Source: a virus (taxonomy: Duplodnaviria > Heunggongvirae > Uroviricota > Caudoviricetes). From it: a stretch of DNA of 64,000 nt. Below the pieces are notes generated by a model that saw only the letters and a program-made list of their open reading frames with translations, did not search any database and was not told the origin of the DNA. Positions 636 to 47,458 of the stretch are shown in pieces (positions within the stretch are counted from its first letter, which is position 1; every line of letters starts with the position of its first letter). The stretch covers positions 19,905 to 83,904 of the IMG/VR virus record IMGVR_UViG_3300006147_000008; one strand, 5' to 3'. The position numbers were made by a program, and so were the translations under genes.

Positions 636-1004
636 TCAATAAACGAGGAGCCAAATGGCAATACAACGAATTTGGACAGCAGCGACGAAGGAAGCGACAT
701 TTTTGGCGTAGCGCGTAGCAATGCCGCGCCAGCGCTTGAGAAGAAGAAAAGCGTTCTCAACGAGATGGCGAAGTTTGTAAAGATATTCGTCGTATTCACG
801 TAATTCTTTGCGGTTTTTCTTTGGAGGGATAACTGGCGTCATTCCCTCGTCAGCAGCTTTGAGAATGATTGCGTCTGTATCATAGCCCCGATCTGCCAGA
901 AGATATTCCGCTTGGAAGCCCTCGATCAACTGCGCTGCAATTGTGCAATCCGCTGTGGTACCAGAAGTGACAAAGAATCGCACCGGCATACCATGCGCAT
1001 CCAC
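636..1004 (-). CDS. IS5-family transposase OrfB (DDE catalytic part), overlaps OrfA (likely programmed frameshift)
   Basis: DDE_Tnp_1-like sequence (LLADRGYDTD...KLRHLVENAF..LK.WRGIATRY); 79-nt overlap with OrfA in different frame. Confidence 0.8.
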   Translation of the reverse strand: MDAHGMPVRFFVTSGTTADCTIAAQLIEGFQAEYLLADRGYDTDAIILKAADEGMTPVIPPKKNRKELREYDEYLYKLRHLVENAFLLLKRWRGIATRYAKNVASFVAAVQIRCIAIWLLVY

Positions 1005-1399
1005 GGCCAGATGTATTTTGGTGTTGAGCCCCCTTTTGTACGGCCCATTGCCTGGTTTCCACCTCGAGCGCCAGTGGCGTCAGGATGTACTTTGACATGG
1101 CTGGCATCGATCATCAGCCACTCAAAGTCGGTGTCATCCACCAGCGCTTCCAGAATCTTTTCCCAAATCCCCTTGTCGCGCCACCGGCAGAACCGCCGGT
1201 GTACATTCTTCCAATTTCCATATGTTTCCGGCAAATCCCGCCAGGGTGCTCCGGTGCGTAAGATCCAGAATACACCGTTGATAAACTGCCGTGTATCTCG
1301 GGCATTGCCTCCGCGCGTCCCCTTTTCGCCTATCGTGTATGGTCTTATTTTCTCCCAAGCTCTGTCGCTTATATCATGTCGATGCTGTTCTCTTGCCAT
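926..1399 (-). CDS. IS5-family transposase OrfA (N-terminal HTH/DUF4096-like part)
   Basis: Protein contains GAPWRDLPE..YG.W..V..RF..W motif typical of IS5 family N-terminal domain. Confidence 0.8.
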   Translation of the reverse strand: MAREQHRHDISDRAWEKIRPYTIGEKGTRGGNARDTRQFINGVFWILRTGAPWRDLPETYGNWKNVHRRFCRWRDKGIWEKILEALVDDTDFEWLMIDASHVKVHPDATGARGGNQAMGRTKGGSTPKYIWPWMRMVCRCDSLSLLVPQRIAQLQRS

Positions 1400-3999: not shown

Positions 4000-4305
4000 C
4001 TAAATCTTTTGTCCTTCTACCTGGTAGCCCAAGCGAACCCTTTTCCATTCGCTTTTGAGAAGAGCTTTCAGCTCAGTTGCAACACCCTTGCACATTCGGG
4101 CGGTCTGTCCTGTCACTTCGTATTCACAGAGATAGGTGCCATCCTCCGACGTTCCAAAGCCTACATAGATGTTAAGGCGGTTTGCCCAGTCAATAACCTC
4201 ATCAACTTTCGCCTTGTGTTGTTCATAGTAGGCGCTGACATCTTCCACATTCTCTTCCAGAAGCCAAGACCCACGCACAAACTTCTCTTTTGCCATGCCG
4301 CTCAC
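4000..4305 (-). CDS. hypothetical protein
   Basis: 101-aa ORF, 4-nt overlap with downstream gene. Confidence 0.45.
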
Positions 4306-5315
4306 CGTTTTCCTGTGGTGCCGAACCCGCCACGGTCAGCGTTGCCCAGCGAAGTCACTGCCTCAAAATGAAGCTGGGGCTGGTGCTTATCAATGCGGAA
4401 CTGGCAAATGCGGTCGCCGACGTGGATTTCAGTATCACGCATGGCGATGGCCGGGAAGTGCCACTGATCATTGTCACCACAATAGCTTTCGTCGATCATG
4501 CCAATGTGGTTGGCCTGGATGATGCCAAAGTTTTTGAAGGTAGAGCTACGGGGGATCATGTACGCCTCATAACCCTTGGGGAGCTGCATAGCAATACCCA
4601 ATGGGATCAACTTGTAGTCCCCCTTCTTCATGGTGGCGTCCTCGGCAGCATAGAGGTCGATCCAGTCAGACTTGCCGTCGATATAGCTCAGAGGCGGGAT
4701 GTCCGGGGAAAGATAGCGTACCTTAATGGTCTGGGTACTCGAAGTGCGTCGCAGCATCTCAGCCGCCGCCTTGTCGTTCAGGATCTCCAGAACATGGCTC
4801 ACCAGTGTGTCATACCCAGCGAAGTCCCCGTTGATATGGCAGCAGTCAACGTTGTGGGCTTCCAAAAACCGCAGCAGATCCTCACTGAGTTTGTCGCTCT
4901 CAGCTTCAGTCTGGAAGCGCCCTGCCTCATTGTAGGGCTTTACTCGATGGACATACACGTTTACACTGTCATAGTGGTTGAACACTTTGAGGGTGAGGTC
5001 GTTGAACTCCTTGCCCAGCACCTGATCGTTTTTGCCATAAAAGGCGGAGAGAAGGATGGGCGAGTCAGTAATCGCCACGTCCACTTTGCCAACAAGCCGG
5101 CTGATGCGGAAATACTGTTTACCGAAGATGTACGCCTGGTTCTCAAAGACAGCTTTTGTCTCCTCCCAGACCTTATCTTTGGCGAACTCTGTGACAAGTT
5201 CGGCGTTGATGCCAGCAGCTTTTAGCTGGGAGAAAACATAGGCCGCTCCAGTGGACTTACCCGCACCGGGAGCACCAAACAGATTGATGATCAACATTTT
5301 CAGAAACCTCCTCAT
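4302..5315 (-). CDS. P-loop NTPase (kinase-like) fused to trimeric dUTPase
   Basis: N-term GAPGAGKST Walker A; C-term dUTPase motifs [10 protein letters not shown] (motif 3) and RGGFGTTG (motif 5). Confidence 0.7.
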
Positions 5316-19335: not shown

Positions 19336-20974
19336 TTAGTCGCTTGCTTTATCCAGACTGTTTTCATCCACCGTCAGCCTCCACTGTGTACCAGCCGGTC
19401 TTTGCTCCGCCCCCCCCGCTTCGGCTTTCAAAACACGCGCTACCGTATCACCATCATAGACGCGGTTGGCGTCGCCGTTATAGTTGTTGATGTAACCAAC
19501 CTGCCTCAGTTCGTCGCTCTTAGGAGGCTGGTCATCGTCACACTGGCGACATTGTGTGTCGAAGGTAGTGAGCGCTTTTTCAAACGCTCCGATACCGGAA
19601 AAGAAGGAACCAATCTCCATATCCTCAAAGAGATACGGCATGGCTTGGTACAGCTCTCCCATGATAGCGCAAAGCACATCCACCACAATGGAATTGCCCG
19701 CCTGCTTGTAGAGTTGAGAACCGCTGCGGTCGTTACCGCCGTACAGGTTCTGGTTCATCGCGGCCTGCGCCTTGTAGAAATCTTCGTCCTCAAAGCCCAT
19801 AAGCCGCCATGCTTCCAGTTGGGTCAGCTTCCGAACACGATAGCTCGGATTTTGAGTAGCACACGGTTTCTCCAAAACAAGTTGCCTCCTTTTCTTTGTA
19901 AGATATTGCTGAACTGTTGTGCCCTTATAGTAATTCGCATCAATACAATACGATATGGGTGGGGTAGCCAATGGAGATAGGTCTTCGTTGACTTCAATCA
20001 CTCTTTTGTCCCCCCCCCCGTCAATGGTGCGAATGGTGCCGCATACATTATCCTTGAAGAAACGGACACCTTCGTCACATCGCCGCTCACATACGATTTT
20101 CATGTCGTTCCACAACTCCTGTCATCTGTTGATTTCCGAACCCTTTATAGTCACGGGCCAACAAGGTTAGCGCCGTATCACAGTACCCATCAAATTGGGT
20201 GCCCTTCTTACTCAGCTTTGCGCTGGCAAGTGAGCAAGTCCCAGCAGTGACGGTCTGTTGAACCTCTTCCGCTTGTGCGGATGGTGTTACTGATCTGTCG
20301 TAGCGGGGGGGGGTGATCATAGCCGCTACCTTGTCGTCAGACAGATAGTAGCGCTCGTCTACATGGTCATCCAACATATCCACCAACACCCTTTTCAGCG
20401 GGATGGGTGCGGGAAATTGGAACTTCCCGTTGTCCAAGTCCTTACGGATGATGACGCAATACACACGCTCCCGATTTTACGGAATACCATAGTTCTTGGC
20501 ATTCAACACTTTCCAGTAAACGTTGTAGCCATAGTCCTCCAGCTCTTTGACAAAGAGGTCAAAAGTGGTGCGGAAACGAGATCCGGTGATGTTCTTGACA
20601 TTCTCATAGATGGCGAAACGGGGCTTCTTCTCTCTCAGGAAACGAAGCCACTCAACCAAGAGCGAAGAGCGGGTCTTCTCAATCTCTGTGTGCCCACATT
20701 TGGGGCAGTGGTCGCGCTGTGTAAAGTGGGCTTCCAGGGGGTTGTAGGTGTGGCCGCAGTGTTTACAAGTCCACGCAGCCCCTCCCTGCTTACCACTGAT
20801 ACTGAAATCCTGACACGGGGAGCCGCCGAACATCACGTTGAAGTCGGGGACGCTCTTCTCGTCGGCCTTGGTGATATCGCCGATGTTGAGCGCTGGGTTA
20901 GTCCCATGCACAGCACAGTAACTTTCTGCGGCGTACTTATCAAACTCGCAGAAAAGGGCAGTTTTGTAATTCAA
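19336..20974 (-). pseudogene. DNA (cytosine-5) methyltransferase, disrupted (in-frame TAA at conserved Gln plus frameshift)
   Basis: Three ORF fragments. Motifs II-IV (PCQ) and VI (ENV) in 20477..20974. Expected QNRER (motif VIII) reads TAA-NRER at about 20477. Frames shift again at about 20087-20115. Motifs IX/X (GNS) in 19336..20115 are followed by a motif-I-like FSGIGAF. Confidence 0.6.
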
Positions 20975-21588: not shown

Positions 21589-22881
21589 TTATCCATAGCT
21601 AATATCGTTTTTGTCCATCCTCAGTGTGACGAAAATGGGGAACTGCAGGCTTTCAGCGCCGGTCTTCTTATCGTAGGAAATCTCCTTGTACTTGACCTCA
21701 CACAAAACGCCCAGCAAATCCTCTTTATGCTTCCAGAGCTGTGCCCGCTGCTCATCAGTGAAGCCAGACCCTACACTAACGGTAGACCCCTTAAAAGATA
21801 CGACCAGCGCACCCAAAGTACCAGCTAACCTACCTGTGCCCTCCTCAAAGTTGATGATGGGCAAGTCCATAGTATAAAACCGCTTAACCTTCAAAATGCC
21901 ACGGTGCCGCTTGCGCTGGTAGGGCACATCAAGGTTGACCATCAGCCCTTCTTTATCCTCAGCCACCATCTGATCCAGTAGCTCGTCGATCTTAGCTTGG
22001 TCAGTACCCATATAGAGTGTCGGTAACACACGGATATGGCAATCGCTCGGCAATAGCCCACCAACTGCGTCCAACGCCGTCCGACGTGCTTTGTAAGTCA
22101 TGACACACTTGTCAGACTCGAACTCTGGTGTGTTGATCACGTCGAAAATAGTGTAGCAAATTGCAGTTTTATCCACGTCATCAGAGTTGATAATGCCAGT
22201 AGCCTTGCGGAATGCCTCATTGTCACTCAGGTCGCCCTTGTCTATCAGTGTCAGCTCTCCGTCGAACACCAGGCCAGAAAACGTTTTGTTGCTGGACAGA
22301 ATATCCGTGATGTGGTCAAGTCCCTCATAAGGGACGCCACTACGGGCATAGAGCTTACCTTTGTAGAAAGTGGCCCGAACACCATTGAGCTTCTGAGTAA
22401 GGGCGAACCACGTCCCCTCTTTGAGCGGGTACTTGTCAATGGGATATGCTTGCTGGACTTCCCACTCTGGGATCAGACCCAGAATGACTTTATTCACGGT
22501 CTTGGCAGTAACACCCAGGCGAAGTGTCTTTGCCAGCAGCTTCGTGTAAAACTCCTTTACACCAGTTGGGCACACTTGAAGGAATGCGCACACCTGATAG
22601 ACTGTAACATCGTCCAAGGCTTTCTTGGCTGATAAGGTATCGCAAATTGTGTAGATGTCGCACAGCGTTAGAGTGATAGCCGGATCATATTTAACTGGAC
22701 GGCTCATCGTCTGTTCCGAAATCTTGTAAGTAAGCATGGGGTTAAGTGCATAGTAAAGGAGCTTGCGAAAATGCTCATTATCCTTGTACCGCCGCAACAT
22801 CTCCTGCTTTTTCAATGTGCTGGACTCCTGCTGGAGCGTACACAACGCTGTGATAGCGTCAAACATGACAGTATTCATCAT
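21589..22881 (-). CDS. ATP-dependent DNA ligase
   Basis: KLNG adenylation motif (motif I KxDG-type), 430 aa, ligase/OB architecture. Confidence 0.8.
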   Translation of the reverse strand: MMNTVMFDAITALCTLQQESSTLKKQEMLRRYKDNEHFRKLLYYALNPMLTYKISEQTMSRPVKYDPAITLTLCDIYTICDTLSAKKALDDVTVYQVCAFLQVCPTGVKEFYTKLLAKTLRLGVTAKTVNKVILGLIPEWEVQQAYPIDKYPLKEGTWFALTQKLNGVRATFYKGKLYARSGVPYEGLDHITDILSSNKTFSGLVFDGELTLIDKGDLSDNEAFRKATGIINSDDVDKTAICYTIFDVINTPEFESDKCVMTYKARRTALDAVGGLLPSDCHIRVLPTLYMGTDQAKIDELLDQMVAEDKEGLMVNLDVPYQRKRHRGILKVKRFYTMDLPIINFEEGTGRLAGTLGALVVSFKGSTVSVGSGFTDEQRAQLWKHKEDLLGVLCEVKYKEISYDKKTGAESLQFPIFVTLRMDKNDISYG

Positions 22882-23617
22882 AAGGGTTGAAGGATGGCAT
22901 GGGACTCAACTTGTGGAGATTATGAGCGTGAAGGGTAGCAATTTTGGTATCGGTAGCCTCGTTGCCAGAGGTGCCGGTAAGGATATACCTATCGAGGTCG
23001 TCATAGGAAAAACCCAGATTATCCTCATCGGTTTTCCCACAAAGACCATCAGAGGGCACCTTGTTTACCAGCTCGGCAGGCAGACCCAATGCGTGACCAA
23101 GCTGAATGACCTCATGTACCATCAAATTGGCAAGAGGACTGAAATCGCCAGCACTATCACCAAATTTGGTGGAGTACCCCACAAAATCCTCAGAGCGGTT
23201 GCAGGTGTTGGCGACACGCCCACCATTGGGAAGGGACTGGGCGATAGCGTAGAGTGTGGTCATGCGGATGCGGGCAGGCAGGTTCGTCTTCGTTTGCTCA
23301 CTGACTTCCATCTTGATGCGAACCCTAAACAAAATGGAATCAACAGGGCTTTGGATATTTACCTGATACGACCGGATGCCAAGATGCTCCACGATTCGCT
23401 TACTGTCCTCGATATCAGCCTGCTCTCCACACGGCATAAGGACACCAACAACTCTTTCCTTTCCCAGGGCTTCAACACAGAGGGCGGCGACGACACTCGA
23501 ATCTTTGCCGCCAGAAATGCCGACCACAGCGTCACATTTGGGGCCGTTCATATTGAAGTAGTCACGAACCCACTGGACAATCTCATCCTTGGCCTGTTTA
23601 GGATCAGACAGCATCAA
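22859..23617 (-). CDS. nadE: NH3-dependent NAD+ synthetase
   Basis: GISGGKDSSV PP-loop motif, 252 aa. Confidence 0.85.
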   Translation of the reverse strand: MMLSDPKQAKDEIVQWVRDYFNMNGPKCDAVVGISGGKDSSVVAALCVEALGKERVVGVLMPCGEQADIEDSKRIVEHLGIRSYQVNIQSPVDSILFRVRIKMEVSEQTKTNLPARIRMTTLYAIAQSLPNGGRVANTCNRSEDFVGYSTKFGDSAGDFSPLANLMVHEVIQLGHALGLPAELVNKVPSDGLCGKTDEDNLGFSYDDLDRYILTGTSGNEATDTKIATLHAHNLHKLSPMPSFNPYDEYCHV

Positions 23618-25149
23618 AACTCACCTCCATGAAGATTTTTGCGTACCTCGTCCAAGGTGAAAACCTTGAGCATCTGGCCGTTTTTGAACACAACTCTCAG
23701 CTCGTTATCTTCCTGCGCCTGTTCCCAGGTAAGGCCGTCCATGTAACAATAGTTGCCGCTGGGAAGGCTCCTGGTGACACGGCAACACCCACGCTGGGAC
23801 TTTTTGAAATTGCCGCTGTCGGTCTTGGGGTTTTTGTAAATCATGATAGGATTGCCGTTATAATCCTCAGCATAGGTAGCCTTGACAGCAATACCGAAGG
23901 TATCACGGGTATAGGGTGCATAAGCCTTGCTGTCGCCGTCTGTTGTCTCCAGACACTGCATGGAGAAGGAACCGACACCCAAAGAGACGTTGTTGATAGC
24001 AAACCCACGCTCCATAAGAATCTGGTAGATCGCCTTGCAGCGCTGCGGAGTAATGCTGTCGCCATAGAGTGCCTTAACGTGCGGGTCAAGAACCTTGTAG
24101 CCCTTGCTGTTCACGGTGCCGCCGAAGATATCCCACAACTTGAATACGGTCTTGGTTACAACCTCTACGGGGTCGCCGCTATCTCCACGAATAGCAAGGC
24201 ACCCATCATGTGCCAGAACGTCGTCCTTGATCTGAGGGAGAATGTTGTCTACCAGGTTCCAGTAGTCATAGCTGTCACTGACCATAGAGAAGTTCTGGTG
24301 CGGGTAAACCTCTTTCAACAGACGCTTGATGTGTGTTACCTCATCACCGTCCACAGCGTAGTTGGAACACATGACACTATGCTCAGTGGACAGAGCACCA
24401 TAAGCCACAGGTTCATTCTCAACACGGCAGGCATAATTCTTTTCCAGCCAGAGGATGGCCGGCACAGTGGCCGTATTCAAAAAGCTCAGGCAGAATGCAG
24501 CAGAACTCTTGGTGGCGCTCTCAACACTTTCCTGACCACGCATAGAAAAGTCGCCCAGGAGCTTTGCCCGCACCACGCTGTCGTCGCAGGTGATATCAGC
24601 AAACTCGTTGACAATCTGCCGATAACGGTATCCCACCTCAGCTGAGATCTGAGTGTGCCACATGGAGCAGGACAGCATAGTTTCAATGCTGTTGACCAAC
24701 CAGACAAAGTGGGGGTTGGTATTCGAGATTTCGATTTGCGGGACATGGATGTCGGTGCGAGTACCCTCCGGCACAGCACGAATCATAAGGGGCAGGTAGC
24801 CCAACTCGTGAAGCGCTTTCACACGACCATAGCCAACACCAACTGTGCCAATGGTACAGCCCAGAATCCGAACGTACTCTTTCATAACCTCGCCGAGAGG
24901 ACGGTTGAAAAAGTAGGTGTTGAACGCCTCAATCAGGTATTCCTGAATAAACGCCTGCAAACCAAACATCGTGATCTTATTCACGTCAGGCAGGCGGGTC
25001 ATACGGGGCGTGTAGTAGGATACCATTTTGGTCAGCGTTTCAGGATACTGCTCCGCGTGCGCTGTCTTATAGAAGTCCAGGCACAGCAAAGGATTGTATG
25101 AAATCATTGTTTGATACCCTCTTTCAGTCAATGATGGAGATTTTTTCAT
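23614..25149 (-). CDS. nicotinamide phosphoribosyltransferase family (Nampt/NadV, or NARP1 Namat-like)
   Basis: 511 aa with Nampt-family sequence; overlaps upstream prs-like gene by 26 nt. Confidence 0.8.
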   Translation of the reverse strand: MKKSPSLTERGYQTMISYNPLLCLDFYKTAHAEQYPETLTKMVSYYTPRMTRLPDVNKITMFGLQAFIQEYLIEAFNTYFFNRPLGEVMKEYVRILGCTIGTVGVGYGRVKALHELGYLPLMIRAVPEGTRTDIHVPQIEISNTNPHFVWLVNSIETMLSCSMWHTQISAEVGYRYRQIVNEFADITCDDSVVRAKLLGDFSMRGQESVESATKSSAAFCLSFLNTATVPAILWLEKNYACRVENEPVAYGALSTEHSVMCSNYAVDGDEVTHIKRLLKEVYPHQNFSMVSDSYDYWNLVDNILPQIKDDVLAHDGCLAIRGDSGDPVEVVTKTVFKLWDIFGGTVNSKGYKVLDPHVKALYGDSITPQRCKAIYQILMERGFAINNVSLGVGSFSMQCLETTDGDSKAYAPYTRDTFGIAVKATYAEDYNGNPIMIYKNPKTDSGNFKKSQRGCCRVTRSLPSGNYCYMDGLTWEQAQEDNELRVVFKNGQMLKVFTLDEVRKNLHGGEF

Positions 25150-25942
25150 GGGAAGCGCGAAGGATACTACTGGTAGTGAACACGCGGGAGATCATGCCGT
25201 CTGTCAGCACATCACCTTGCAAAATGGTGTTTTCACAATGGCTGACATAAAGGAAGATTTCTTTTGCCCCAGCCTCTTTCAAAGCCTTAGCGGTATGGGT
25301 GAACGTACCGCCACGAGAGCAAATATCATCTACGATCAAAACGTTCTGCCCAACAACCTTCCATGAGTCAGTCAGCTCCAAACGCTCAATTTTGCCGGTA
25401 CGCCAATCGCGGTGCTTGATACAGAACACATAGTCCATCTGGAACATAGCAGAGTACCGCTTGGCTGCACCCTCGTCGGGGTAGCACAGCAAAACATTCA
25501 TGTTGCGCTTGCCGTTCAGTTCGTCGATCACCGACTCAATACAGTCATGGGCTGCAATAGTCTCGACATGGTTAATCAAAGCCTCAGAGACATTAGAATG
25601 GGGATCAAATACTTGGACATAGGAGAAATGCAGGCTGTTGATAAACTCCGCAAACCATTTGAGGGTGAAAACCTCATCGCAGTTTTTCACACGATCCATA
25701 CGCGCATTGGGCACATATGGCATATACAGCCCGATTGGAGTATTCTCCCCATTGTTGGCCCGGATATGATGAACAAGGTTCCAAAGCAACATACACTCGT
25801 GGTCGCCATCATACTTCCAGTCAATCTTGTAAGCGTCGTCTCTTGCGTAAAGCCGCAAAGAGCAGGTTTTGTCTGGGAAGGATGTAGGGGAGAGCTTTTC
25901 ACCATTTACCGTAAACATCTCAGCCCTCCCAGTTCTCCACAT
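25124..25942 (-). CDS. ribose-phosphate pyrophosphokinase family (Prs, or NARP1 Adps-like)
   Basis: PRPP-binding loop VLIVDDICSRGGTFTHTAKAL; 272 aa. Confidence 0.75.
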   Translation of the reverse strand: MWRTGRAEMFTVNGEKLSPTSFPDKTCSLRLYARDDAYKIDWKYDGDHECMLLWNLVHHIRANNGENTPIGLYMPYVPNARMDRVKNCDEVFTLKWFAEFINSLHFSYVQVFDPHSNVSEALINHVETIAAHDCIESVIDELNGKRNMNVLLCYPDEGAAKRYSAMFQMDYVFCIKHRDWRTGKIERLELTDSWKVVGQNVLIVDDICSRGGTFTHTAKALKEAGAKEIFLYVSHCENTILQGDVLTDGMISRVFTTSSILRASHEKISIID

Positions 25943-26477
25943 TGATCTGGCACACCTTCATAGCGACCAAAGCATTGGCATGGCTTTCAGGGGTTACACC
26001 AGCACAGCAGGCAGCATCAACAGTGATCTTCACCTCTGGCAGAAACGCTTTGATAAGCAAAGCGTTGGAAATAACACAGATATCGGTGCAGAGGCCAATC
26101 ACAACCACCTCATCTACACGCTGCCGCTGAGAAAGAGTATCCAGGCACTCGCCCAGATCAACAGAGGCGAAAGTGTCCTTCTGGAATACCGACACACCTT
26201 TGTGAAAGTCAATAGCCGCATGGCTGACAGCCGTAGCCACAGCATCGTGGAGTCTCCATCCCGCCGTCTCCTCAATACAGTGCTCAACAGGGAGCAACTT
26301 GCCCTCCTGAGTCTCCAGATAATTGCGCTGGTGCGTATCCTTGGTAATGTAGATTGCGTCGCCATCAAACTGGTCGATTTTCTTAACGACGTTATCAACA
26401 ATAGCCTGTGCTGCCGGCGTCCCAAGGGCACCATCAATGAAATCGTTCTGCATATCTACGATCACAAGAACTTTCAT
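25920..26477 (-). CDS. isochorismatase-family hydrolase (nicotinamidase PncA-like)
   Basis: Start at RBS-preceded MKVLVIVDMQNDF, a characteristic nicotinamidase N-terminus; conserved Cys present. Confidence 0.7.
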   Translation of the reverse strand: MKVLVIVDMQNDFIDGALGTPAAQAIVDNVVKKIDQFDGDAIYITKDTHQRNYLETQEGKLLPVEHCIEETAGWRLHDAVATAVSHAAIDFHKGVSVFQKDTFASVDLGECLDTLSQRQRVDEVVVIGLCTDICVISNALLIKAFLPEVKITVDAACCAGVTPESHANALVAMKVCQINVENWEG

Positions 26478-26490
26478 CGTAATCACTCCT

Positions 26491-27318
26491 TCAGAATGAG
26501 CACTCACACGGTAGGTTATCATCATCTTTAATGAGCTTCCGTGCGACTGCCCAGAATTTTTGAGGTTTGGTTTTTTCAGTGGGCGGCAACGCCTTTTCTT
26601 TGAGCTTGGCAAATTCCGCCTCAAATTCTGAAAGAAAACCTTGCTTTAGAATACTGTACCCGATTGCATCCTCAGCTTGCTTTGCCTTTGCCCATATCTC
26701 AGGGTAGAGGCAATACACAATAAACCAGTGTTGTTTACCAGCTTTTAGGCAACCGGTACAATTTGCATGGTTGAAAATGCTGTAAGGTTTTGGACGATCA
26801 ATCCCAACCTCTTCAATCTCATAGATCGTTCTCGTTTCCCAAGTCAACGGATACTCAGTCTGATAACCCATAGCAGCCATGATGCCGACTCTACGCCGGA
26901 TGCGGTGCTGCTCATTGGCATCAAAACCGTATACCAAGGAAATGTCGTCTCGGATTTCTGGAGGATTTGCGGGATAATGCTCAGCAAGCCATTTATGGAA
27001 TGGCTCAGTTTTCAGCCTATTGGTGCAGAGAGCGGTAGACTGTGCGCCGCACTTGAACGCTTTGATCTCCATGCACACATCAAACTGATCTTTGGTTTCC
27101 CATCCGGGCATATTGGCGTATGTGATGGATACACCCAAATAGTCCGAAACCTCTTGTTTGAAACGTTTGATATCTGCGTCTTCGGTGCGAGGGCAGAGAT
27201 CGTGATTGAGTAAAATGACGTTCTCTGCTCCGTACCGTCTGACTACTTCCACGGCGGCTATCGCAGATGAATGACCGCCAGAAAAACATACGATGTGCTT
27301 CATACCGACCACAACCAT
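26491..27318 (-). CDS. PAPS reductase-like PP-loop protein
   Basis: CFSGGHSS PP-loop variant, Cys-rich C-terminus. Confidence 0.55.
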   Translation of the reverse strand: MVVVGMKHIVCFSGGHSSAIAAVEVVRRYGAENVILLNHDLCPRTEDADIKRFKQEVSDYLGVSITYANMPGWETKDQFDVCMEIKAFKCGAQSTALCTNRLKTEPFHKWLAEHYPANPPEIRDDISLVYGFDANEQHRIRRRVGIMAAMGYQTEYPLTWETRTIYEIEEVGIDRPKPYSIFNHANCTGCLKAGKQHWFIVYCLYPEIWAKAKQAEDAIGYSILKQGFLSEFEAEFAKLKEKALPPTEKTKPQKFWAVARKLIKDDDNLPCECSF

Positions 27319-27943: not shown

Positions 27944-29460
27944 TAGCTGTTTGCCGGAAGCGGAGCCGCCCTTTTAGCAGTGAGGGCTATCGCATTGGCC
28001 CGACCCGGAATGATTCTGATACGCGAGGTTGCGGATGCTCCGGATATCATGGGTATCTCAAAGCCTGCTGGCCTGAAATCCCATCACAGGGGAGGTGAAA
28101 ATATGAATCCACTATTTGTAGGCATTGACGTGAGCAGCAAAAACAATGTGACCTACCTGATGAAGCCGGACGGAAGCAAGTACAGCAGTTTTTCCGTGCA
28201 AAACAACCTGGGTGGTGCTAAACTGATGTCAGAGAAGATCGTGTCAGCGCTGGAGGCCATGCAGCTCAGTGATGTGGTGATTGGCCTGGAGGCCACGTCC
28301 ATCTACGGGGATGGCCTGGTCTGCGCCCTCCGGGAAGACGGGCGGCTGGGACATTACCAGAGGAAGATCCATGTGCTCAATCCCAAGCAGGTCAAGAAGT
28401 TCAAGGACTCCTATCCCGACCTGCCCAAGAATGACTGGGTGGACGCCTTTGTCATCGCCGACCATCTCCGCTTCGGCAGGATCGGCAAGGAGGTCTACAT
28501 GGACGATTACCGCTATAAATCCCTGCAAACCCTCGCCAGGGCCAGATTTGACGTTGTGCAGAACCTGACGCGGGAGAAGCAGCACTTCGCCAATTACCTG
28601 TTCCTCAAGTGCTCCGGCATGGCCCAGGACAAGGACATTGCCAATTCCAGCGCCACCACCATCGCCCTCATGGAGCGGTTTGAAACGGTGGACGAGCTGG
28701 CCTACGCTGATCTGGATGAACTGACCAGGTTCATTGATGAAACCGGGCGCAACTTCGCAGACCCAGCGGCAAAAGCAAAGGCCATCCAAGCCGCTGCCAG
28801 AAACTCCTATCGCCTGCCTGTTACGGTAAACAGCTCTGTAAACCAGGCGATGGCCGTTTCTATTGCCACAATGAGGGCACTGGAAAAGCAAATTAAAGTG
28901 TTGGACAAGGCCATTGAGCAGCAGTTTCAGATCATCCCCAACACGCTTACCTCCATCCCCGGTATCGGCAAGGTCTACTCCGCTGGTATCATTGCCGAAA
29001 TCGGCGATGTCCACCGTTTTAACTCTCAGGCGTCCGTTGCCAAATACGCCGGCCTTGTCTGGACACAGCACCAGTCCGGCGACTTTGAGGCTCAGCATAC
29101 CAAGCTCATCAAGTCCGGTAACCGCTATCTACGTTACTACCTGCTGGAAGCCGCCAACTCCGTGAGAAGATGCGACTCCGAGTTCCGGCGCTACTATGAC
29201 CTTAAATTCAAAGAGGTCAATCAGTTCCAGCATAAACGCGCACTCGCTTTAACTGCCAGAAAGCTGGTTCGGTTGGTCTATCGGCTGCTGATGGACAACC
29301 GCCTGTATATCCCGCCAGAGAGCTGAGCAAGTCGCTCACTGCTCTGACGAACAGGCCCTGTTTCAAAAATTTGCAGGGACAGGGCTTGGGTTGGTGTTGC
29401 CTTTTTACGGCTCCTATGGCCCCTTTTGGCCGATTCTTCTCAAATTTTCCTTGCATCACC
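27944..29460 (+). mobile_element. IS110-family insertion sequence (boundaries approximate)
   Basis: Single plus-strand transposase gene among minus-strand phage genes; IS110 elements lack terminal IRs so ends not determinable by eye. Confidence 0.5.
28103..29326 (+). CDS. IS110-family transposase
   Basis: RBS GGAGGTG + MNPLFVGIDVSSK N-terminus (DEDD_Tnp_IS110) and C-terminal Transposase_20-like segment ...GLVWTQHQSGDF... Confidence 0.85.
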   Translation: MNPLFVGIDVSSKNNVTYLMKPDGSKYSSFSVQNNLGGAKLMSEKIVSALEAMQLSDVVIGLEATSIYGDGLVCALREDGRLGHYQRKIHVLNPKQVKKFKDSYPDLPKNDWVDAFVIADHLRFGRIGKEVYMDDYRYKSLQTLARARFDVVQNLTREKQHFANYLFLKCSGMAQDKDIANSSATTIALMERFETVDELAYADLDELTRFIDETGRNFADPAAKAKAIQAAARNSYRLPVTVNSSVNQAMAVSIATMRALEKQIKVLDKAIEQQFQIIPNTLTSIPGIGKVYSAGIIAEIGDVHRFNSQASVAKYAGLVWTQHQSGDFEAQHTKLIKSGNRYLRYYLLEAANSVRRCDSEFRRYYDLKFKEVNQFQHKRALALTARKLVRLVYRLLMDNRLYIPPES

Positions 29461-30670: not shown

Positions 30671-31504
30671 TCAGACGTTGGAAACGGTTTGGAGCCTTTT
30701 CCAAATGAGCGCCAAAGGCACAAAAGACACAGCCTGTACGATGCTCTCCTGTTGTTGTCCACCCCCCCCGTTAGTTCTGACGATATCGCCATAGACAGAT
30801 GCGTAAGGAATCTGATAGGTATACAGGTACTCAAGTACATCGCTTTCAGTCCAGAAGGACATGGGCTGAGAACTGGGATTTTTCCCGGAGAAAGCGTTAC
30901 AGCCCTGGTGTAGCCACGTACTGCGACGTAATCTGCTTTCTTCCGCCATGGTTGCGATGATGGGGTGCCGACCTGTCTCCTTTTTATACTTCTTCATGGG
31001 CCGCTTTTTCATGATATTGCAGCATCGAGCAGAAACCTTAAAGGGGGCGTCCAGCAGATAGCACCACTTTTCACAGTTGAACTCTGAAGGAGTACCATTG
31101 CTCCGCATAATCTCTCCGTGAAGCTCTTTCCACCGAAAAGAGCCAGGCTTGTGCCCATATTCCACAGTGTCGGCCACTCGTTTAGAAACAACTGGGTAGC
31201 CATACCGCTCAATGATTTTGCGGAAATTCATCTCTGGACGAACAACAGTGACATTTTCACAGCTTCTGGCAAACTGCCTAACCTCTGGGAACTCCAGCCC
31301 TGTGTCTGAAAACACTGCCGGCACATCAGGGTAGATGCGCCGTACAATGTCAAGGAGCACCGTAGAATCCTTGCCCCCAGAAAAAGCCACGTAAACTTGG
31401 CCGTCGTAGTGCTGATACCACTCAATGATCCGAGCGGTCGTAATTTGGATTTTGCGTTGAAGTGGAAGCCTCTGTAGCTCTTCCAGCTGTTCCCTACTAT
31501 GCAA
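30671..31504 (-). CDS. PP-loop ATP pyrophosphatase (PAPS reductase / TtcA-like)
   Basis: VAFSGGKDSTVLLD PP-loop; Cys cluster CEKWC...CC; TTG start with RBS; contains in-frame C8 tract at about 30756. Confidence 0.6.
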   Translation of the reverse strand: MHSREQLEELQRLPLQRKIQITTARIIEWYQHYDGQVYVAFSGGKDSTVLLDIVRRIYPDVPAVFSDTGLEFPEVRQFARSCENVTVVRPEMNFRKIIERYGYPVVSKRVADTVEYGHKPGSFRWKELHGEIMRSNGTPSEFNCEKWCYLLDAPFKVSARCCNIMKKRPMKKYKKETGRHPIIATMAEESRLRRSTWLHQGCNAFSGKNPSSQPMSFWTESDVLEYLYTYQIPYASVYGDIVRTNGGGGQQQESIVQAVSFVPLALIWKRLQTVSNV

Positions 31505-35908: not shown

Positions 35909-37066
35909 TTAGGGATACATAGTTTTCAACCGATGTACAGCCTCAGCGATAGCCTGGGCCGTATCCACCATGTCGTTTGCCGTATTGTCATACCCCAGTG
36001 AGATACGGACTGTTGACGCTGCGTCTTCATCTGACAGCCCAATTCCTTTTAGAACATGGGACGGTACAGAGTCGGATGCGCTGCAAGCAGAGCCGGCAGA
36101 AAGATAAATTTCCTTTTGATCCAGCAAAAGAAGCAGTGCTTCACTGTTCACACCTGGAATTGTTATGCTGATGATGTTATGGGTTCGCAAATCGGCGGCG
36201 TTCTGCCGATACTCTCCAGGCATTACCTTATCCAGCTCTTTCAACAGAACATATTCCTGACTGTTCCACTTTTGAATTTGCCGAGGAAGCCGATGAATGA
36301 TAATCTCAGCAGCTTTGCCAAGACCTACGATGCCGGGCACATTGTATGTTCCCGCTCTCATGCCGTGCTCCTGTCCGCCACCACCGATTAGCGCCCTCTT
36401 GGAAACTCCATTGCGTACATAGAGCACTCCAACACCAGGAGGTGCGCCGAACTTATGCCCGGACATCGAGAGGAAATCCATACCACACTTCTTAACGTCG
36501 ATGGGAATGTGGCCCGCCGCCTGCACAGCATCCACATGGAAAGACAATCTATTCTTTTTACAAAGCATTGCAATTTCCTCAATGGGATTGATCGTGCCAA
36601 GCTCGTTGTTTACCCACATCACAGACACAGCTTGATAACAGCTGGAATCAAGGAGGTGTCTTAGATCGTCCATATCCACACTTCCGTCTGACAGGTTCTT
36701 CACATAGGTGACTTCATGTGCCCACTCTTCCAGTGGATGAGGCACGGAATGATGTTCAAGTCTGGTTGTGATAACTCGCTCACCCATAACATATCGGGCA
36801 AATGTGTTGTTGGACTCCGTACCACCGGAGGTAAAGAAAATCTCCGATGTATCAGCGTTGATCATTTTGGCAACCTGTTCACGAGCGTTCTCTATGGCCT
36901 GCGATGCGTTCACGCCCTGCGTGTGAATACTGCTGGCGTTACCTACATGATCCGGCTGAAACCAAGGAAGCATGGCTTCCAAAACCTCTGGGAATACGGC
37001 TGTGGTCGCTGCATGGTCGAGATAAATCACTGGTATCACCTCTTTCTGAAAAAGAGGCTCAGACAA
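35909..37066 (-). CDS. cysteine desulfurase (class V aminotransferase, NifS/IscS-like)
   Basis: PLP-lysine motif SMSGHKFGAPPGVGVLYV; 385 aa. Confidence 0.85.
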   Translation of the reverse strand: MSEPLFQKEVIPVIYLDHAATTAVFPEVLEAMLPWFQPDHVGNASSIHTQGVNASQAIENAREQVAKMINADTSEIFFTSGGTESNNTFARYVMGERVITTRLEHHSVPHPLEEWAHEVTYVKNLSDGSVDMDDLRHLLDSSCYQAVSVMWVNNELGTINPIEEIAMLCKKNRLSFHVDAVQAAGHIPIDVKKCGMDFLSMSGHKFGAPPGVGVLYVRNGVSKRALIGGGGQEHGMRAGTYNVPGIVGLGKAAEIIIHRLPRQIQKWNSQEYVLLKELDKVMPGEYRQNAADLRTHNIISITIPGVNSEALLLLLDQKEIYLSAGSACSASDSVPSHVLKGIGLSDEDAASTVRISLGYDNTANDMVDTAQAIAEAVHRLKTMYP

Positions 37067-44413: not shown

Positions 44414-47400
44414 TTACTCAATCACCTGTTTGCCCCAGGAAAGATAGGACAATCCCTTGTCATCCACCTTGCGAGACATCAGCAGACTCATAAGGTCATA
44501 GTCCACGCCGAAGCGGTTATACACCTCATCCAAGTCCACATCCTGCCCCTTCATAAACAGGTTCAACTTCTCCTTTGCAAGAACCATCTGCATTTGGTTA
44601 GACTCAATGCTTCCAGAGTAGGTAACAAAGTAGATGTCCTTCCAGTCTGTAGAGGTGAAGCGGACAAACCTCATATAGAACTGGCTCATCCGGGCATTAT
44701 TATAGTGCAGCTCTGGGATAACCACCTTGTTTACAAACTCGAAGTTGACCGAAGATGGGAGGCATTGCTGAGTACAGACCATAATGCCATTGCCGCTTTC
44801 CTTCAGAGACTTTTTCAGCTTCCGCCGTCCGGCCAAGGTCGTGGTGCTGCCAGTGACGGTAAACAGCTTACGCTTAGGGAAACGCTGCCGAATTGCCTCA
44901 GTGTATGCCTCCACAACGTTTTTATGGCGGACACCGATTACCACGACCTCATCATTCCACTCTGCCACCATATCGCAGACCTTCCTGATCTTGACTGGCA
45001 AATCCGCACTGTCGTATTCCTCCACAGTGTTGGGGGCGGCAGAAATACGCAGGAGCAGGGTGATTTGCTGGATCAGAGCCATCATGCTATCCTTTCGGCT
45101 GTTTCCGGTGAGGGCAAAATACCGCTGACGCAACGCAAAAAACTCCTCAACCGCTTTCCGATACACCTCGCGTTCCACGGAGGAGAACGACACAGGAACC
45201 TGGTGGATGCGACGGATCTCCTTGCCCGTGATTTCCGCGAACGTTCTGGTAATGACAGCGTAAGACAACATCCTGTTCAGCGCGTCCGCATTGTAGATAT
45301 CCTGGGTCTTTTTACCAACACCAAACACGGTGATCTTCTCCGGCAAATGAGACTCAGCAAACAAACGGTATCCAGGCTTGTAGGCGGGGATGGGCTTGCC
45401 ATAGAAGGGGTTGTTAGTGCTGCCCAGCCAGCTACCGTCCTCGTCTTTTTCATACTGATACAAGCACTCCGCCCAAGAAATCATATTGTAAGAGTTGTTA
45501 TAAAGCAGTTCCAGCTGTGGCGCACTCTCCGAGATGTTGTTCCGAGTGACGGTGCCAGTCATTTCCAGCTTAAACCGAACCTTTCTGAAGCAATCCAGTA
45601 CAGCCTTGGTGCGTTTGCTATCTGGGTTGGTCATCTCATCGCTCTCGTCAAATACCAAATCCACGTTCCGCTGCCGCATCTTGATGTGGCGCTTGATCTG
45701 CTTGCGGTACTTGGAGAGCATATTCAGGGTGATGATGACAAACTCACCATCCCTTACCCCATCCAGGTCGGAGAGGGTGCGGATCATCCGATAGTTGGTC
45801 ATACCATAGTTTTTGAACACCAGATCCCAGTTATTTTTGATGGAGATAGCTGTGGACACAACCCAGACGTTCCGAGCACCCTGCCGCTCCATACGATACC
45901 TACCCGTAGCGATACCTGCCAGCGTCTTGCCGCCGCCCTGCTCCCACTGTAGGAGATGGTAACGCTTCTGTAAGATCAGGTTGAGGTTATGCTTCTGAGT
46001 GTCGTTAAGGTGTATCCACTCCTCATTCTCATTATCATAGACGGTAAACTCGTCCAAGAACCGAGCAATCTTAGCGTCCAGCTCCATCTCTTCAAAGGGT
46101 TTTGTCTCTCGGTCATAGTCACGCTGCTTGCGGCGAATGAGACGGGCATACTGCTCTAAACCCGTGCCGTCCATCTGCCCCGAAACGAGAGCGTAAAACG
46201 GGACAAACTGCTTCATTTCCAACGTCATGGACTGCCGTACCTTTTTACTATACCCTTTGTAAATCAGTCCGCCGTCCTGCTTGACCAACCGGATCACATC
46301 GCGGCTGGGCTTCTTGTGCTGGGACTTGACCACACGCCGAAGATAGGCCAGCACCTTAGCTTCTGTAATGCGGATTTTTGCCCACTCCTCGTATTTCATA
46401 TCGGCGGGCTGAACCTGGTGCTGGAACTTATACAGATACTCCTGGCACTTGGCGTACTTGTCGGCCAGCTTGGGGTTTTTCTTAATGTGAAACAACATCT
46501 TCTGCACTTGGTAGTCAAACTCACTGCAATTATCACTGCGTCCAAGCAGCTCGGCACGAGCGCGATTTTGTTGCTTCAGCATTTTGGCAGGAGCCACGAT
46601 TTTCTCCTTGGTGTAACGCAGTAGATCGGCGGTGTCATCCAGGCTGAACATTTGAGCGTCGCAATCCAAACGGTAAACGCCGGAGACTTCCTCACCGTCC
46701 ATTCGTTTCTGCCAGAACATCACCTTTGTAAGATAGTTGGTTACACCCAGATATCTGAACGCGCCGCCCATAATCTCAATCTGTCCCATAAAGGAAAAGT
46801 GCTTTTCCATCTCTGCAATTTTTTGTTTATCCATATAATCATCAGAGAGGAATTGTGCTGGCACCACGATAGCCATGATACCCAGGGGCTTGAGAAGCTG
46901 CGCTGCCTTGAGACAGTAGTACATCTGAGAAATATACTCTGTATCATCCACCTGCCATTTCAGATTGAAGGGCGGATTGCCCACCACAAAATCGAAGTGC
47001 ATATCCGGCTCATAGAAACGAATGTCCTTATGCTCCAAATTGGCGGCAGGGTAGAGATAGTGAGCAACCTTATGGGATTTGATATCCAGCTCACAGCCAT
47101 AGAAGTTGGCCTCCACCGGCATGAAGTTGGCAAAGTGCGCCATCCCGGAGGTAAGGTCGGCTACGGTGTCGGTCATCCCTACATCCAGTGCCTCCATGAT
47201 GAACTGGCACAGGGCAGGCGGAGTGAAGAACTGCCCGTTCTCGATCTCCTTCTTAGCCTCGCCGTACTCGTGGTAGTTGGCAAAATCCGACCGTTTCAGG
47301 CCGTGCAGTCCGCCGTCGCCGGTGTAAGCGTTGAAGATATCCTCACGGGTGATGCCCTCCTGCTCCGCTATATCCTGATCGACGATATAGAGGATCTTGT

Positions 47401-47458
47401 CGTTCAGCTCACGACGGGCCTCCTGGGGGATAATCTCATTGTGAAATGTGTATTTCAT
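44414..47458 (-). CDS. DarB-like N6-adenine DNA methyltransferase fused to SNF2/DEAD-type helicase (1014 aa)
   Basis: N-term MTase motif VVGNPPFNLKW; central/C-term helicase motifs (GGGKT-like Walker A region, DESDEMTNP DExx box). Confidence 0.8.
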   Translation of the reverse strand: MKYTFHNEIIPQEARRELNDKILYIVDQDIAEQEGITREDIFNAYTGDGGLHGLKRSDFANYHEYGEAKKEIENGQFFTPPALCQFIMEALDVGMTDTVADLTSGMAHFANFMPVEANFYGCELDIKSHKVAHYLYPAANLEHKDIRFYEPDMHFDFVVGNPPFNLKWQVDDTEYISQMYYCLKAAQLLKPLGIMAIVVPAQFLSDDYMDKQKIAEMEKHFSFMGQIEIMGGAFRYLGVTNYLTKVMFWQKRMDGEEVSGVYRLDCDAQMFSLDDTADLLRYTKEKIVAPAKMLKQQNRARAELLGRSDNCSEFDYQVQKMLFHIKKNPKLADKYAKCQEYLYKFQHQVQPADMKYEEWAKIRITEAKVLAYLRRVVKSQHKKPSRDVIRLVKQDGGLIYKGYSKKVRQSMTLEMKQFVPFYALVSGQMDGTGLEQYARLIRRKQRDYDRETKPFEEMELDAKIARFLDEFTVYDNENEEWIHLNDTQKHNLNLILQKRYHLLQWEQGGGKTLAGIATGRYRMERQGARNVWVVSTAISIKNNWDLVFKNYGMTNYRMIRTLSDLDGVRDGEFVIITLNMLSKYRKQIKRHIKMRQRNVDLVFDESDEMTNPDSKRTKAVLDCFRKVRFKLEMTGTVTRNNISESAPQLELLYNNSYNMISWAECLYQYEKDEDGSWLGSTNNPFYGKPIPAYKPGYRLFAESHLPEKITVFGVGKKTQDIYNADALNRMLSYAVITRTFAEITGKEIRRIHQVPVSFSSVEREVYRKAVEEFFALRQRYFALTGNSRKDSMMALIQQITLLLRISAAPNTVEEYDSADLPVKIRKVCDMVAEWNDEVVVIGVRHKNVVEAYTEAIRQRFPKRKLFTVTGSTTTLAGRRKLKKSLKESGNGIMVCTQQCLPSSVNFEFVNKVVIPELHYNNARMSQFYMRFVRFTSTDWKDIYFVTYSGSIESNQMQMVLAKEKLNLFMKGQDVDLDEVYNRFGVDYDLMSLLMSRKVDDKGLSYLSWGKQVIE

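Follow-up and report, generated by a model that had tools for sequence, protein, structure and literature searches.

A predicted NAD+ reconstitution module acting through nicotinic acid

A stretch of 64,000 nucleotides from a virus of the class Caudoviricetes (IMG/VR virus record IMGVR_UViG_3300006147_000008, positions 19,905 to 83,904 of that record; the whole stretch is referred to as the window) was analysed around four consecutive minus-strand genes at 22859-26477, which encode homologues of the nicotinamidase PncA, of Adps, of Namat and of the NAD+ synthetase NadE. The four genes are best read as one operon-like unit that would rebuild nicotinamide adenine dinucleotide (NAD+) through nicotinic acid and nicotinic acid adenine dinucleotide (NaAD), as a deamidated variant of NAD+ reconstitution pathway 1 (NARP1). 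On the sequence data, this reading was given a probability of roughly 0.55. A single integrated pathway of four steps is proposed because loss of an aspartate from the pocket of the Namat homologue, here termed Namat*, co-occurs with PncA and NadE across the 221 loci that were compared. NARP1 consists of Adps and Namat and has been described for the phages Bas63, SpβL1 and Fado (Osterman et al., bioRxiv 10.1101/2024.02.11.579819), with Namat structures deposited as 9w5w/9w5x (PMC12774641).

The pathway would start from the action of NADase defence effectors (SIR2, TIR, SEFIR and similar), which split NAD+ into ADP-ribose (ADPR) and nicotinamide. Nicotinamide would be converted to nicotinic acid and ammonia by the PncA-like enzyme, and the Adps homologue would form ADPR-pyrophosphate (ADPR-PP) from ADPR and ATP. 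Namat* would then join nicotinic acid to ADPR-PP, yielding NaAD and pyrophosphate, and NadE would produce NAD+ from NaAD, ammonia and ATP, possibly re-using the ammonia released in the first step. In this scheme Adps and Namat* would replace PncB and NadD of the Preiss-Handler route, and neither Nmnat nor NadD would be needed. The predicted first and last steps rest on strong family evidence. We infer the substrates of the second and third steps from the clades to which the enzymes belong, the altered pocket and the gene neighbourhood, and the module's role in anti-defence is likewise a prediction.

The earlier note on this DNA had placed four gene families within this region. All four open reading frames (ORFs) were confirmed, each with a significant family match, in the minus-strand order PncA-like, Adps-like, Namat-like and NadE:

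25920..26477, minus strand: PncA-like isochorismatase-family hydrolase, 185 aa (PF00857, 2.7e-25)
25124..25942, minus strand: Adps-like Prs-family enzyme, 272 aa as listed (PF00156; phrog_619, 1e-68)
23614..25149, minus strand: Namat-family transferase with altered pyridine pocket, Namat*, 511 aa as listed (PF04095, PF18127; phrog_448, 6e-153)
22859..23617, minus strand: NH3-dependent NAD+ synthetase NadE, 252 aa as listed (PF02540, 1.5e-53; phrog_11189, 5.5e-67)

At the junctions, the PncA gene was seen to start at ATG 26477 with the ribosome-binding site GAAGGAG in front of it. The Adps gene probably starts at ATG 25918 behind GGGAGG, giving 264 aa, and the Namat* gene probably at ATG 25107, giving 497 aa, the same length as database homologues. 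The likely start of NadE is ATG 23614, which overlaps the Namat* stop codon as TGATG. As the genes are tightly packed or overlapping at these junctions, translational coupling is probable. An upstream gene resembling PAPS reductase (26491-27318) and a downstream ATP-dependent DNA ligase gene (21589-22881) were considered as further members of the module and set aside, since they were found there only in the closest relatives; the PAPS-reductase-like gene directly adjoins the module and is missing in more distant relatives.

Family placement of the four proteins

Namat* scored 445 bits against NF006629 (cutoff 405) and 407 bits against the SpβL1 Namat crystal structures, compared with 181 bits for the Nampt of Xanthomonas (Xcc) and 150 for human NAMPT. 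In a tree rooted on the NARP2-type Nampt of phage PMBT1, it fell inside the Namat radiation; this and all other trees were simple neighbour-joining (NJ) trees. The residues of the Namat catalytic core (D13, Y15, F189, R192, H245, R306, D308, T398, R399 and D400) are kept, with R306, D308 and the phospho-His conserved, and in the alignment both the Nampt-type loop GxGGGLLQ and the Asp at the 215/219 position are missing. By these sequence comparisons Namat* is a member of the phage Namat family and not a housekeeping Nampt. Two size variants were seen among its relatives: a single ORF of 598 aa whose middle part holds about 94 inserted residues (L011, 8001-9797), and ORFs that extend to about 650 aa and may represent a C-terminal fusion (L087, L088, L130 and L133).

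The Adps-like protein gave matches to true Prs models that were weak and below cutoff, and merely 43 bits to solved Prs structures. By blastp it scored 58-167 bits against Adps genes adjoining Namat genes with the canonical Asp and 60 bits against E. coli Prs. In the tree it nests among the Adps genes of canonical loci, with E. coli Prs as a long outgroup branch. Its flexible-loop lysine K176, a candidate counterpart of the catalytic K162 of SpβL1 Adps, is invariant in all 175 Adps-like sequences. The PRPP-type motif DDICSRGGT is also conserved. Judged on sequence relationships, this Prs homologue is a member of the phage Adps family rather than a housekeeping Prs. The phylogenetic placement that the earlier note had called for therefore puts both proteins in the Adps and Namat clades, the bit scores and trees rule out housekeeping-type Prs and Nampt, and its lead towards NARP1 was borne out.

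The hydrolase passed PF00857 with 89.9 bits (cutoff 27) and fell below the curated nicotinamidase cutoff of NF008623 (41.9 bits against 174); its nearest NCBIfam model was the nicotinamidase PRK11609 (9e-11, below cutoff). Its best solved relatives include the nicotinamidase of S. pneumoniae (3o90) and the PncA proteins of M. tuberculosis (3pl1) and P. horikoshii (1ilw). Its catalytic triad (D8, K100, C134) and metal ligands (D47, H49, H66) align with those of M. tuberculosis PncA and the S. pneumoniae nicotinamidase, and in 150 distinct homologues from the modules the conservation of these residues is 95% or higher. By its sequence the protein is thus a divergent member of the nicotinamidase family. 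A generic cysteine hydrolase was considered and rejected, as the triad and the metal ligands, the latter specific to nicotinamidases, are fully conserved. NadE matched TIGR00552 with 183 bits (cutoff 63.65). It consists of a single domain with no glutaminase domain, and in 140 homologues from the modules its motifs, among them the P-loop GISGGKDS, show at least 95% conservation.

The pyridine pocket and adenine clamp of Namat*

The nicotinamide pocket of Namat is formed by F189, R192, D215, A242, R306, D13' and Y15', and in SpβL1 Namat D215 hydrogen-bonds the amide of nicotinamide, with the D215A mutation lowering activity 8-fold (PMC12774641). The corresponding Asp219 defines the substrate specificity of human NAMPT (PMC7096376), where D219S switches the substrate and D219A inactivates the enzyme, as tabulated from Khan et al. 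2006 in Table 2 of PMC4919578. In Namat* this aspartate is Ala227 and A242 is Ser254, and all other pocket, ribose and phosphate residues are kept. The positions concerned, in the 511-aa numbering, are as follows:

24469..24471, minus strand: Ala227 codon, aligned with SpβL1 Namat Asp215 and human NAMPT Asp219
24388..24390, minus strand: Ser254 codon, aligned with SpβL1 Namat Ala242 and human Ala244, in the nicotinamide pocket and tunnel
23902..23973, minus strand: selectivity-clamp helix (SCH) region GSFSMQCLETTDGDSKAYAPYTRD, 24 residues with a 13-aa insertion at about 23917-23955

An unbiased scan of about 488 alignment columns was performed with non-redundant sets of 27 Asp-type and 56 Ala/Ser-type sequences, the types being named by the residue at position 215. 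Only six columns were strictly discriminating, namely H187G, G213N, D215A, S239G, A242S and P307G. All six flank residues of the pyridine pocket, and the ribose, phosphate and adenine contacts are the same in both types. By offset from the D215/D219 correspondence the discriminating positions match human H191, G217, D219, S241 and A244, of which H191, G217 and A244 are known sites of inhibitor resistance in human NAMPT (PMC4919578).

The adenine clamp is in part altered in the window protein. Its SCH reads GSFSMQ-(13 aa)-YTRD over 24 residues, compared with the 11-residue Namat consensus GSXΦXΦXΦTRD, and misses the Namat signature in that the Phe at position 3 and the TRD are kept while the aromatic residue at position 7 is gone. 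Across the clade of the window protein the insertion is 9 to 25 aa long; F392, T398, R399 and D400 remain, the Y396 position is gone and the TRD is invariably preceded by an aromatic residue. The stacking residue of the SCL is retained as Arg52 in TPRMTR, which aligns with R40, and is Arg in 95% of the Ala/Ser type. Relatives in Clostridium and in phAss-1 combine the Ala/Ser pocket with the exact canonical 11-aa SCH, GSYTYQYNTRD.

Co-occurrence of pocket type with PncA and NadE

The 221 loci, compared with flanks of up to 8 kb, comprised the 80 IMG/VR loci nearest to the window protein, the 52 IMG/VR loci nearest to SpβL1 Namat, 80 loci from GTDB genomes, and deposited phage records. Residues 215 and 242 covaried throughout. 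Ala or Ser at 215 was accompanied by Ser at 242 in 184 of 184 loci and Asp or Glu at 215 by Ala at 242 in 37 of 37; within the Ala/Ser type the residue at 215 was Ser in twelve loci and Ala in the remainder. Both PncA and NadE were present within 8 kb in about 95% of the 184 Ala/Ser loci. Those without the full set were short contigs and some Clostridium chromosomes lacking a nearby NadE. Neither gene was found in any of the 37 Asp/Glu loci, of which 35 carried Adps and all but one the canonical clamp motif. The reference proteins of FelixO1 (Felixounavirus group), which we take to be Bas63-type, AS-yj, PMBT1 and the gut crAss-like phage cr85_1 were all of the acidic/Ala type. The idea that the pocket type merely marks gut origin was dropped on account of cr85_1, a gut phage with the acidic/Ala pocket and neither PncA nor NadE.

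The same four genes were found together in about 180 independent contigs and in at least three gene orders (PncA-Adps-Namat-NadE, Adps-Namat-NadE-PncA and PncA-Namat-NadE…Adps), and their linkage persisted through rearrangement and down to 31-45% protein identity. Clustering of the four genes is far beyond chance.

These results bear on a reading in which a standard NARP1 is accompanied by independent helpers, such that Namat* joins nicotinamide to ADPR-PP and forms NAD+ directly and PncA and NadE boost Preiss-Handler flux of the host. An Adps and Namat pair with no detected Nmnat fits the definition of NARP1, the D215A variant of SpβL1 Namat retains about one eighth of its activity with nicotinamide, and NadE genes also occur alone in other phages. 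Set against this, the amide-binding Asp never occurs in the Ala/Ser type, six pocket-flanking positions are fixed differently, pocket state predicts the presence of PncA and NadE across the survey, and neither gene is ever found in canonical Asp-type modules. PncA would moreover compete with Namat for nicotinamide. We regard this reading as distinctly improbable. The earlier note had treated NadE and PncA as extras beside a standard NARP1, a view that was abandoned in light of the lost amide-binding Asp and its co-occurrence with both genes.

Undetected NadD and possible displacement of PncB and NadD

The 46 window ORFs of at least 138 aa were scanned with Pfam, and phmmer searches were seeded with NadD and NadR of E. 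coli and NadD of phage G. The earlier note had held that a canonical Nmnat elsewhere in the genome would favour standard salvage; in the 46 ORFs of the 64-kb window no member of the CTP_transf_like family and no Nmnat, NadD, NadR, PncB or PnuC was detected. The three phmmer seeds detected no homologue of NadD or NadR in the window or in the first 141 loci (L001-L141). The complete phAss-1 genome had no detectable NadD or NadR, and NadD was present in none of the roughly 220 loci; weak NadR-like matches were seen in 2 of the 80 genome loci. PncB and NadD of phage G had no homologue in the window or the loci. One window ORF (4302-5315, minus strand) fuses a kinase-like AAA_28 domain to a dUTPase domain. 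AAA_28 is the family of the ribosylnicotinamide kinase domain of NadR, and the fusion was rejected as an Nmnat candidate, as it is not an adenylyltransferase.

Classical deamidated clusters have the composition PncA-PncB-KptA-NadD-NadE in phage G and nrtR-pncA-pncB-nadD-nadE in C. acetobutylicum (PMC2330246). In the window module and in Clostridium loci linked to the regulator NrtR, PncB and NadD are missing and Adps and Namat* are present. Adps and Namat* thus appear to stand where PncB and NadD stand in the classical clusters, which would amount to non-orthologous displacement.

The same observations have to be weighed for a deamidated salvage route based on phosphoribosyl pyrophosphate (PRPP), in which the Prs homologue makes PRPP, Namat* converts nicotinic acid and PRPP to nicotinic acid mononucleotide (NaMN), NadD of the host forms NaAD and the phage NadE completes the synthesis. 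The pocket change and the linkage to PncA and NadE suit the use of nicotinic acid equally well in this route, and bacterial hosts universally have NadD. The NaMN route also keeps a share of the probability because SpβL1 Namat accepts PRPP in vitro (PMC12774641) and the clamp helix of the window protein is broken by its insertion. On the other side, the Prs homologue lies within the Adps radiation, whose tested member made no product in a Prs-type control assay, and the adenine-clamp residues R40, F392 and TRD are retained, with a completely canonical clamp in the versions from Clostridium and phAss-1. Where the classical route is used, in phages as in bacteria, the cluster includes PncB and NadD, and the surveyed loci have no NadD. 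Genes for ADPR processing are in addition frequent in the modules, as is the ADPR-sensing NrtR beside them in bacteria. Taken together, the PRPP-based route was judged unlikely.

Links to ADP-ribose metabolism

Macro-domain genes were found inside 49 modules and occurred in 73 of the 184 Ala/Ser loci compared with 5 of the 37 Asp loci. Genes for NADAR, Tpt1/KptA and PARG were frequent neighbours of related modules as well. In three species, Clostridium sartagoforme, C. beijerinckii and C. grantii, an Adps-PncA-Namat*(-NadE) operon adjoins NrtR, recognised by its NUDIX domain and NrtR winged helix. The NrtR-linked chromosomal loci are:

L220, 10266-11177
L214, 5264-6172
L210, 5956-6579

The Macro, NADAR, Tpt1/KptA, PARG and NrtR neighbours tie the module to ADP-ribose metabolism, and the NrtR-linked operon suggests an ADPR-induced chromosomal version of the pathway. 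Individual examples include a Macro-domain gene at 6568-7194 of L013, and Tpt1/KptA, NADAR, a microbial PARG and a PurA-like adenylosuccinate synthetase homologue in or beside relatives (L131, L082 and L214). None of these additional ADPR-linked genes (Macro, Tpt1/KptA, NADAR, PARG, PurA-like) was found in the window.

In a further reading the chemistry is as proposed and the module primarily serves general recycling or boosting of NAD+ during infection, or housekeeping recycling of ADPR in bacteria. Homologous operons adjoin a metabolic regulator in Clostridium chromosomes, NARP2 raises NAD+ even without a defence system, and the NAD synthesis clusters of gut jumbo phages have been interpreted as metabolic. 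Against a purely metabolic role, it is mainly upon NADase activation that ADPR and nicotinamide build up together, NARP1 homologues have been shown to counter Thoeris, DSR1/2, SIR2-HerA and SEFIR, and loci of NAD/ADPR conflict typically have Macro, NADAR and KptA genes as neighbours. General recycling as the role of the module was considered doubtful, although the two roles are compatible and not mutually exclusive. As for the deamidated pathway in its broader sense, the chances appear about even that Namat* is a nicotinate ADP-ribose transferase and that its pathway is both the dominant route of NAD+ reconstitution in phages and prophages of gut Clostridia and an NrtR-regulated recycling operon in Clostridium.

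Points that weigh against the proposed pathway

Besides the PRPP activity of SpβL1 Namat and the interrupted clamp, several points count against reconstitution through nicotinic acid and NaAD. The Ala/Ser loci may stem from one or two ancestral events, so that 184 loci are not 184 independent observations. In the NJ tree, monophyly of all Ala/Ser-type Namat proteins received a support of only 5/100. This low value arises because phAss-1 branches apart, and the separate branch may reflect either an independent origin or a long-branch artefact. As the 13-aa clamp insertion removes the Y396 position, the predicted preference for ADPR-PP is less secure in the sub-clade of the window than in the Clostridium and phAss-1 versions. 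The proposed substrate assignment draws on one precedent, human D219S, together with gene context. The searches for Nmnat and NadD covered window ORFs of at least 138 aa, three seeds and 64 kb of this phage. Finally, a route of four enzymes costs more ATP than the two-enzyme NARP1, and its selective advantage is unexplained. Speculatively, the benefit could lie in trapping membrane-permeable nicotinamide as nicotinate or in matching hosts that deamidate nicotinamide rapidly.

Distribution of the module

The module is common and conserved in gut phages and prophages of Clostridia. Uncultivated gut phages in which it is widespread are those of Oscillospiraceae, Lachnospiraceae, Ruminococcus and Clostridium. 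The suggestion in the earlier note of an unusually complete NAD module for a phage does not hold in this light. Contigs carrying the module were also binned with Methanomassiliicoccaceae and other methanogens (L168, L172), Elusimicrobia, Saccharibacteria, Azoarcus, Spirochaetales and Bacteroidales (Alistipes, Odoribacter). The contigs in these bins (L152, L153, L159, L161, L164, L167-L169, L172, L173, L181, L204, L206 and L212), several of them short, are probably phage contigs mis-binned into metagenome-assembled genomes and are consequently unreliable for host assignment. In the phAss-1 record the genes are labelled nicotinamidase, ribose-phosphate pyrophosphokinase and nicotinamide phosphoribosyltransferase.

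Phage, host and other features of the window

Megablast of a 10-kb region gave no match to deposited phage genomes, and close relatives of the window were found among IMG/VR contigs. The nearest genome matches were an Oscillospiraceae isolate scaffold (L144), 93.6% identical to the window in DNA across the 4.6-kb module, and Dysosmobacter segnis. In D. segnis BX15 (L146, contig 300519-318015) phage genes about 80% identical to those of the window abut bacterial genes resembling ABC transporters. On this account the host is probably an Oscillospiraceae gut anaerobe, and the direct junction suggests that L146 is an integrated prophage and that this phage group has a temperate lifestyle.

The replication region of the window encodes NrdD/NrdG, ThyX, a deoxynucleoside monophosphate kinase, a Pol III alpha-type polymerase, a primase-helicase, SSB and ERF. 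A PD-(D/E)XK nuclease, the ATP-dependent DNA ligase and several methyltransferases are encoded as well. Further features were observed as follows:

27980-29326, plus strand: IS110-family transposase (phrog_2199, 1e-74), just upstream of the module region
926-1399, minus strand: DUF4096 ORF, N-terminal part of an IS4/IS5-type transposase
20477-20974, 20087-20464 and 19336-20115, minus strand: C5 cytosine DNA methylase apparently split across three ORFs, the first with a zinc-ribbon insert
26491-27318, 30671-31504 and 35909-37066, minus strand: two PAPS-reductase-like genes and a class-V aminotransferase (cysteine desulfurase-like)
44414-47458, minus strand: protein of 1014 aa with N6-adenine methyltransferase and ResIII/DEAD helicase domains

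The IS110-family insertion is recent, as the closest relatives L003 and L144 lack a transposase at this position, and the DUF4096 ORF is a second trace of mobile elements. The split methylase at 19336-20974 may be a frameshifted or fragmented gene, and the PAPS-reductase-like pair with the aminotransferase may form a set for sulfur-dependent modification of DNA or tRNA. The 1014-aa protein resembles a fused restriction-modification or anti-restriction enzyme.

Comparison with known systems

NARP1, NARP2 and NARP3 have already been described, and the detour through nicotinic acid is apparently undescribed. No description of a NARP1 variant involving nicotinic acid, NaAD, PncA or NadE was found in the searchable literature, which does not include many subscription papers, the final journal version of NARP1 among them. 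Those phages of E. coli, Bacillus and Vibrio that have been studied to date appear to lack the nicotinic acid route. Should the inferred chemistry be right, the formation of NaAD from nicotinic acid and ADPR-PP would be a new enzymatic reaction and the module a fourth way for phages to rebuild NAD+. It would also explain how gut anaerobes, which salvage niacin via the deamidated branch, and their phages recycle ADP-ribose, and would give the ADPR-sensing regulator NrtR a logical target operon. Tools that look only for an Adps and Namat pair would presumably label such loci as plain NARP1; the six discriminating residues provide a sequence rule by which Namat homologues can be sorted by predicted substrate.

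With NARP1 the window module shares adjacent genes of the Adps and Namat families, a phage context and the predicted input of ADPR; no Nmnat was detected in the 64-kb window, and Namat* keeps the Namat catalytic core, the SCL arginine at position 40, F392 and the TRD. It differs in the replacement of Asp215 by Ala and Ala242 by Ser, in four more pocket-flanking positions and in the 13-aa clamp insertion. The module type is furthermore obligately linked to PncA and NadE, and the predicted product of its transferase is NaAD and not NAD+. Classical Preiss-Handler clusters resemble it in having PncA first and NadE last, in the linkage to NrtR in Clostridium and in the deamidated intermediates; unlike in these clusters, Adps and Namat* stand in for PncB and NadD, and ADPR, in place of PRPP and ATP, would supply the ribose-adenylate part.

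NARP2, made up of the Nampt and bifunctional Nmnat of KVP40, likewise relies on an enzyme of the Nampt family to rebuild NAD+ in cells infected by phage. Its Nampt, however, prefers PRPP, has a GxGGGLLQ-type loop and Asp at position 215 (PMBT1), and needs an Nmnat, of which none was detected in the window. NARP3, consisting of a PnuC-like transporter and a NadR-like enzyme (PMC13464706), is also a phage counter-defence that restores NAD+, but it is built from unrelated proteins and uses nicotinamide riboside, and neither PnuC nor NadR was detected in the window. The closest parallel to the pocket change is human NAMPT D219S, a substitution at the same pocket Asp, with Ser itself occurring in twelve of the surveyed loci. 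The human variant was engineered as a single mutation in an enzyme that depends on PRPP, whereas the change seen here is natural and comes together with five more fixed substitutions.

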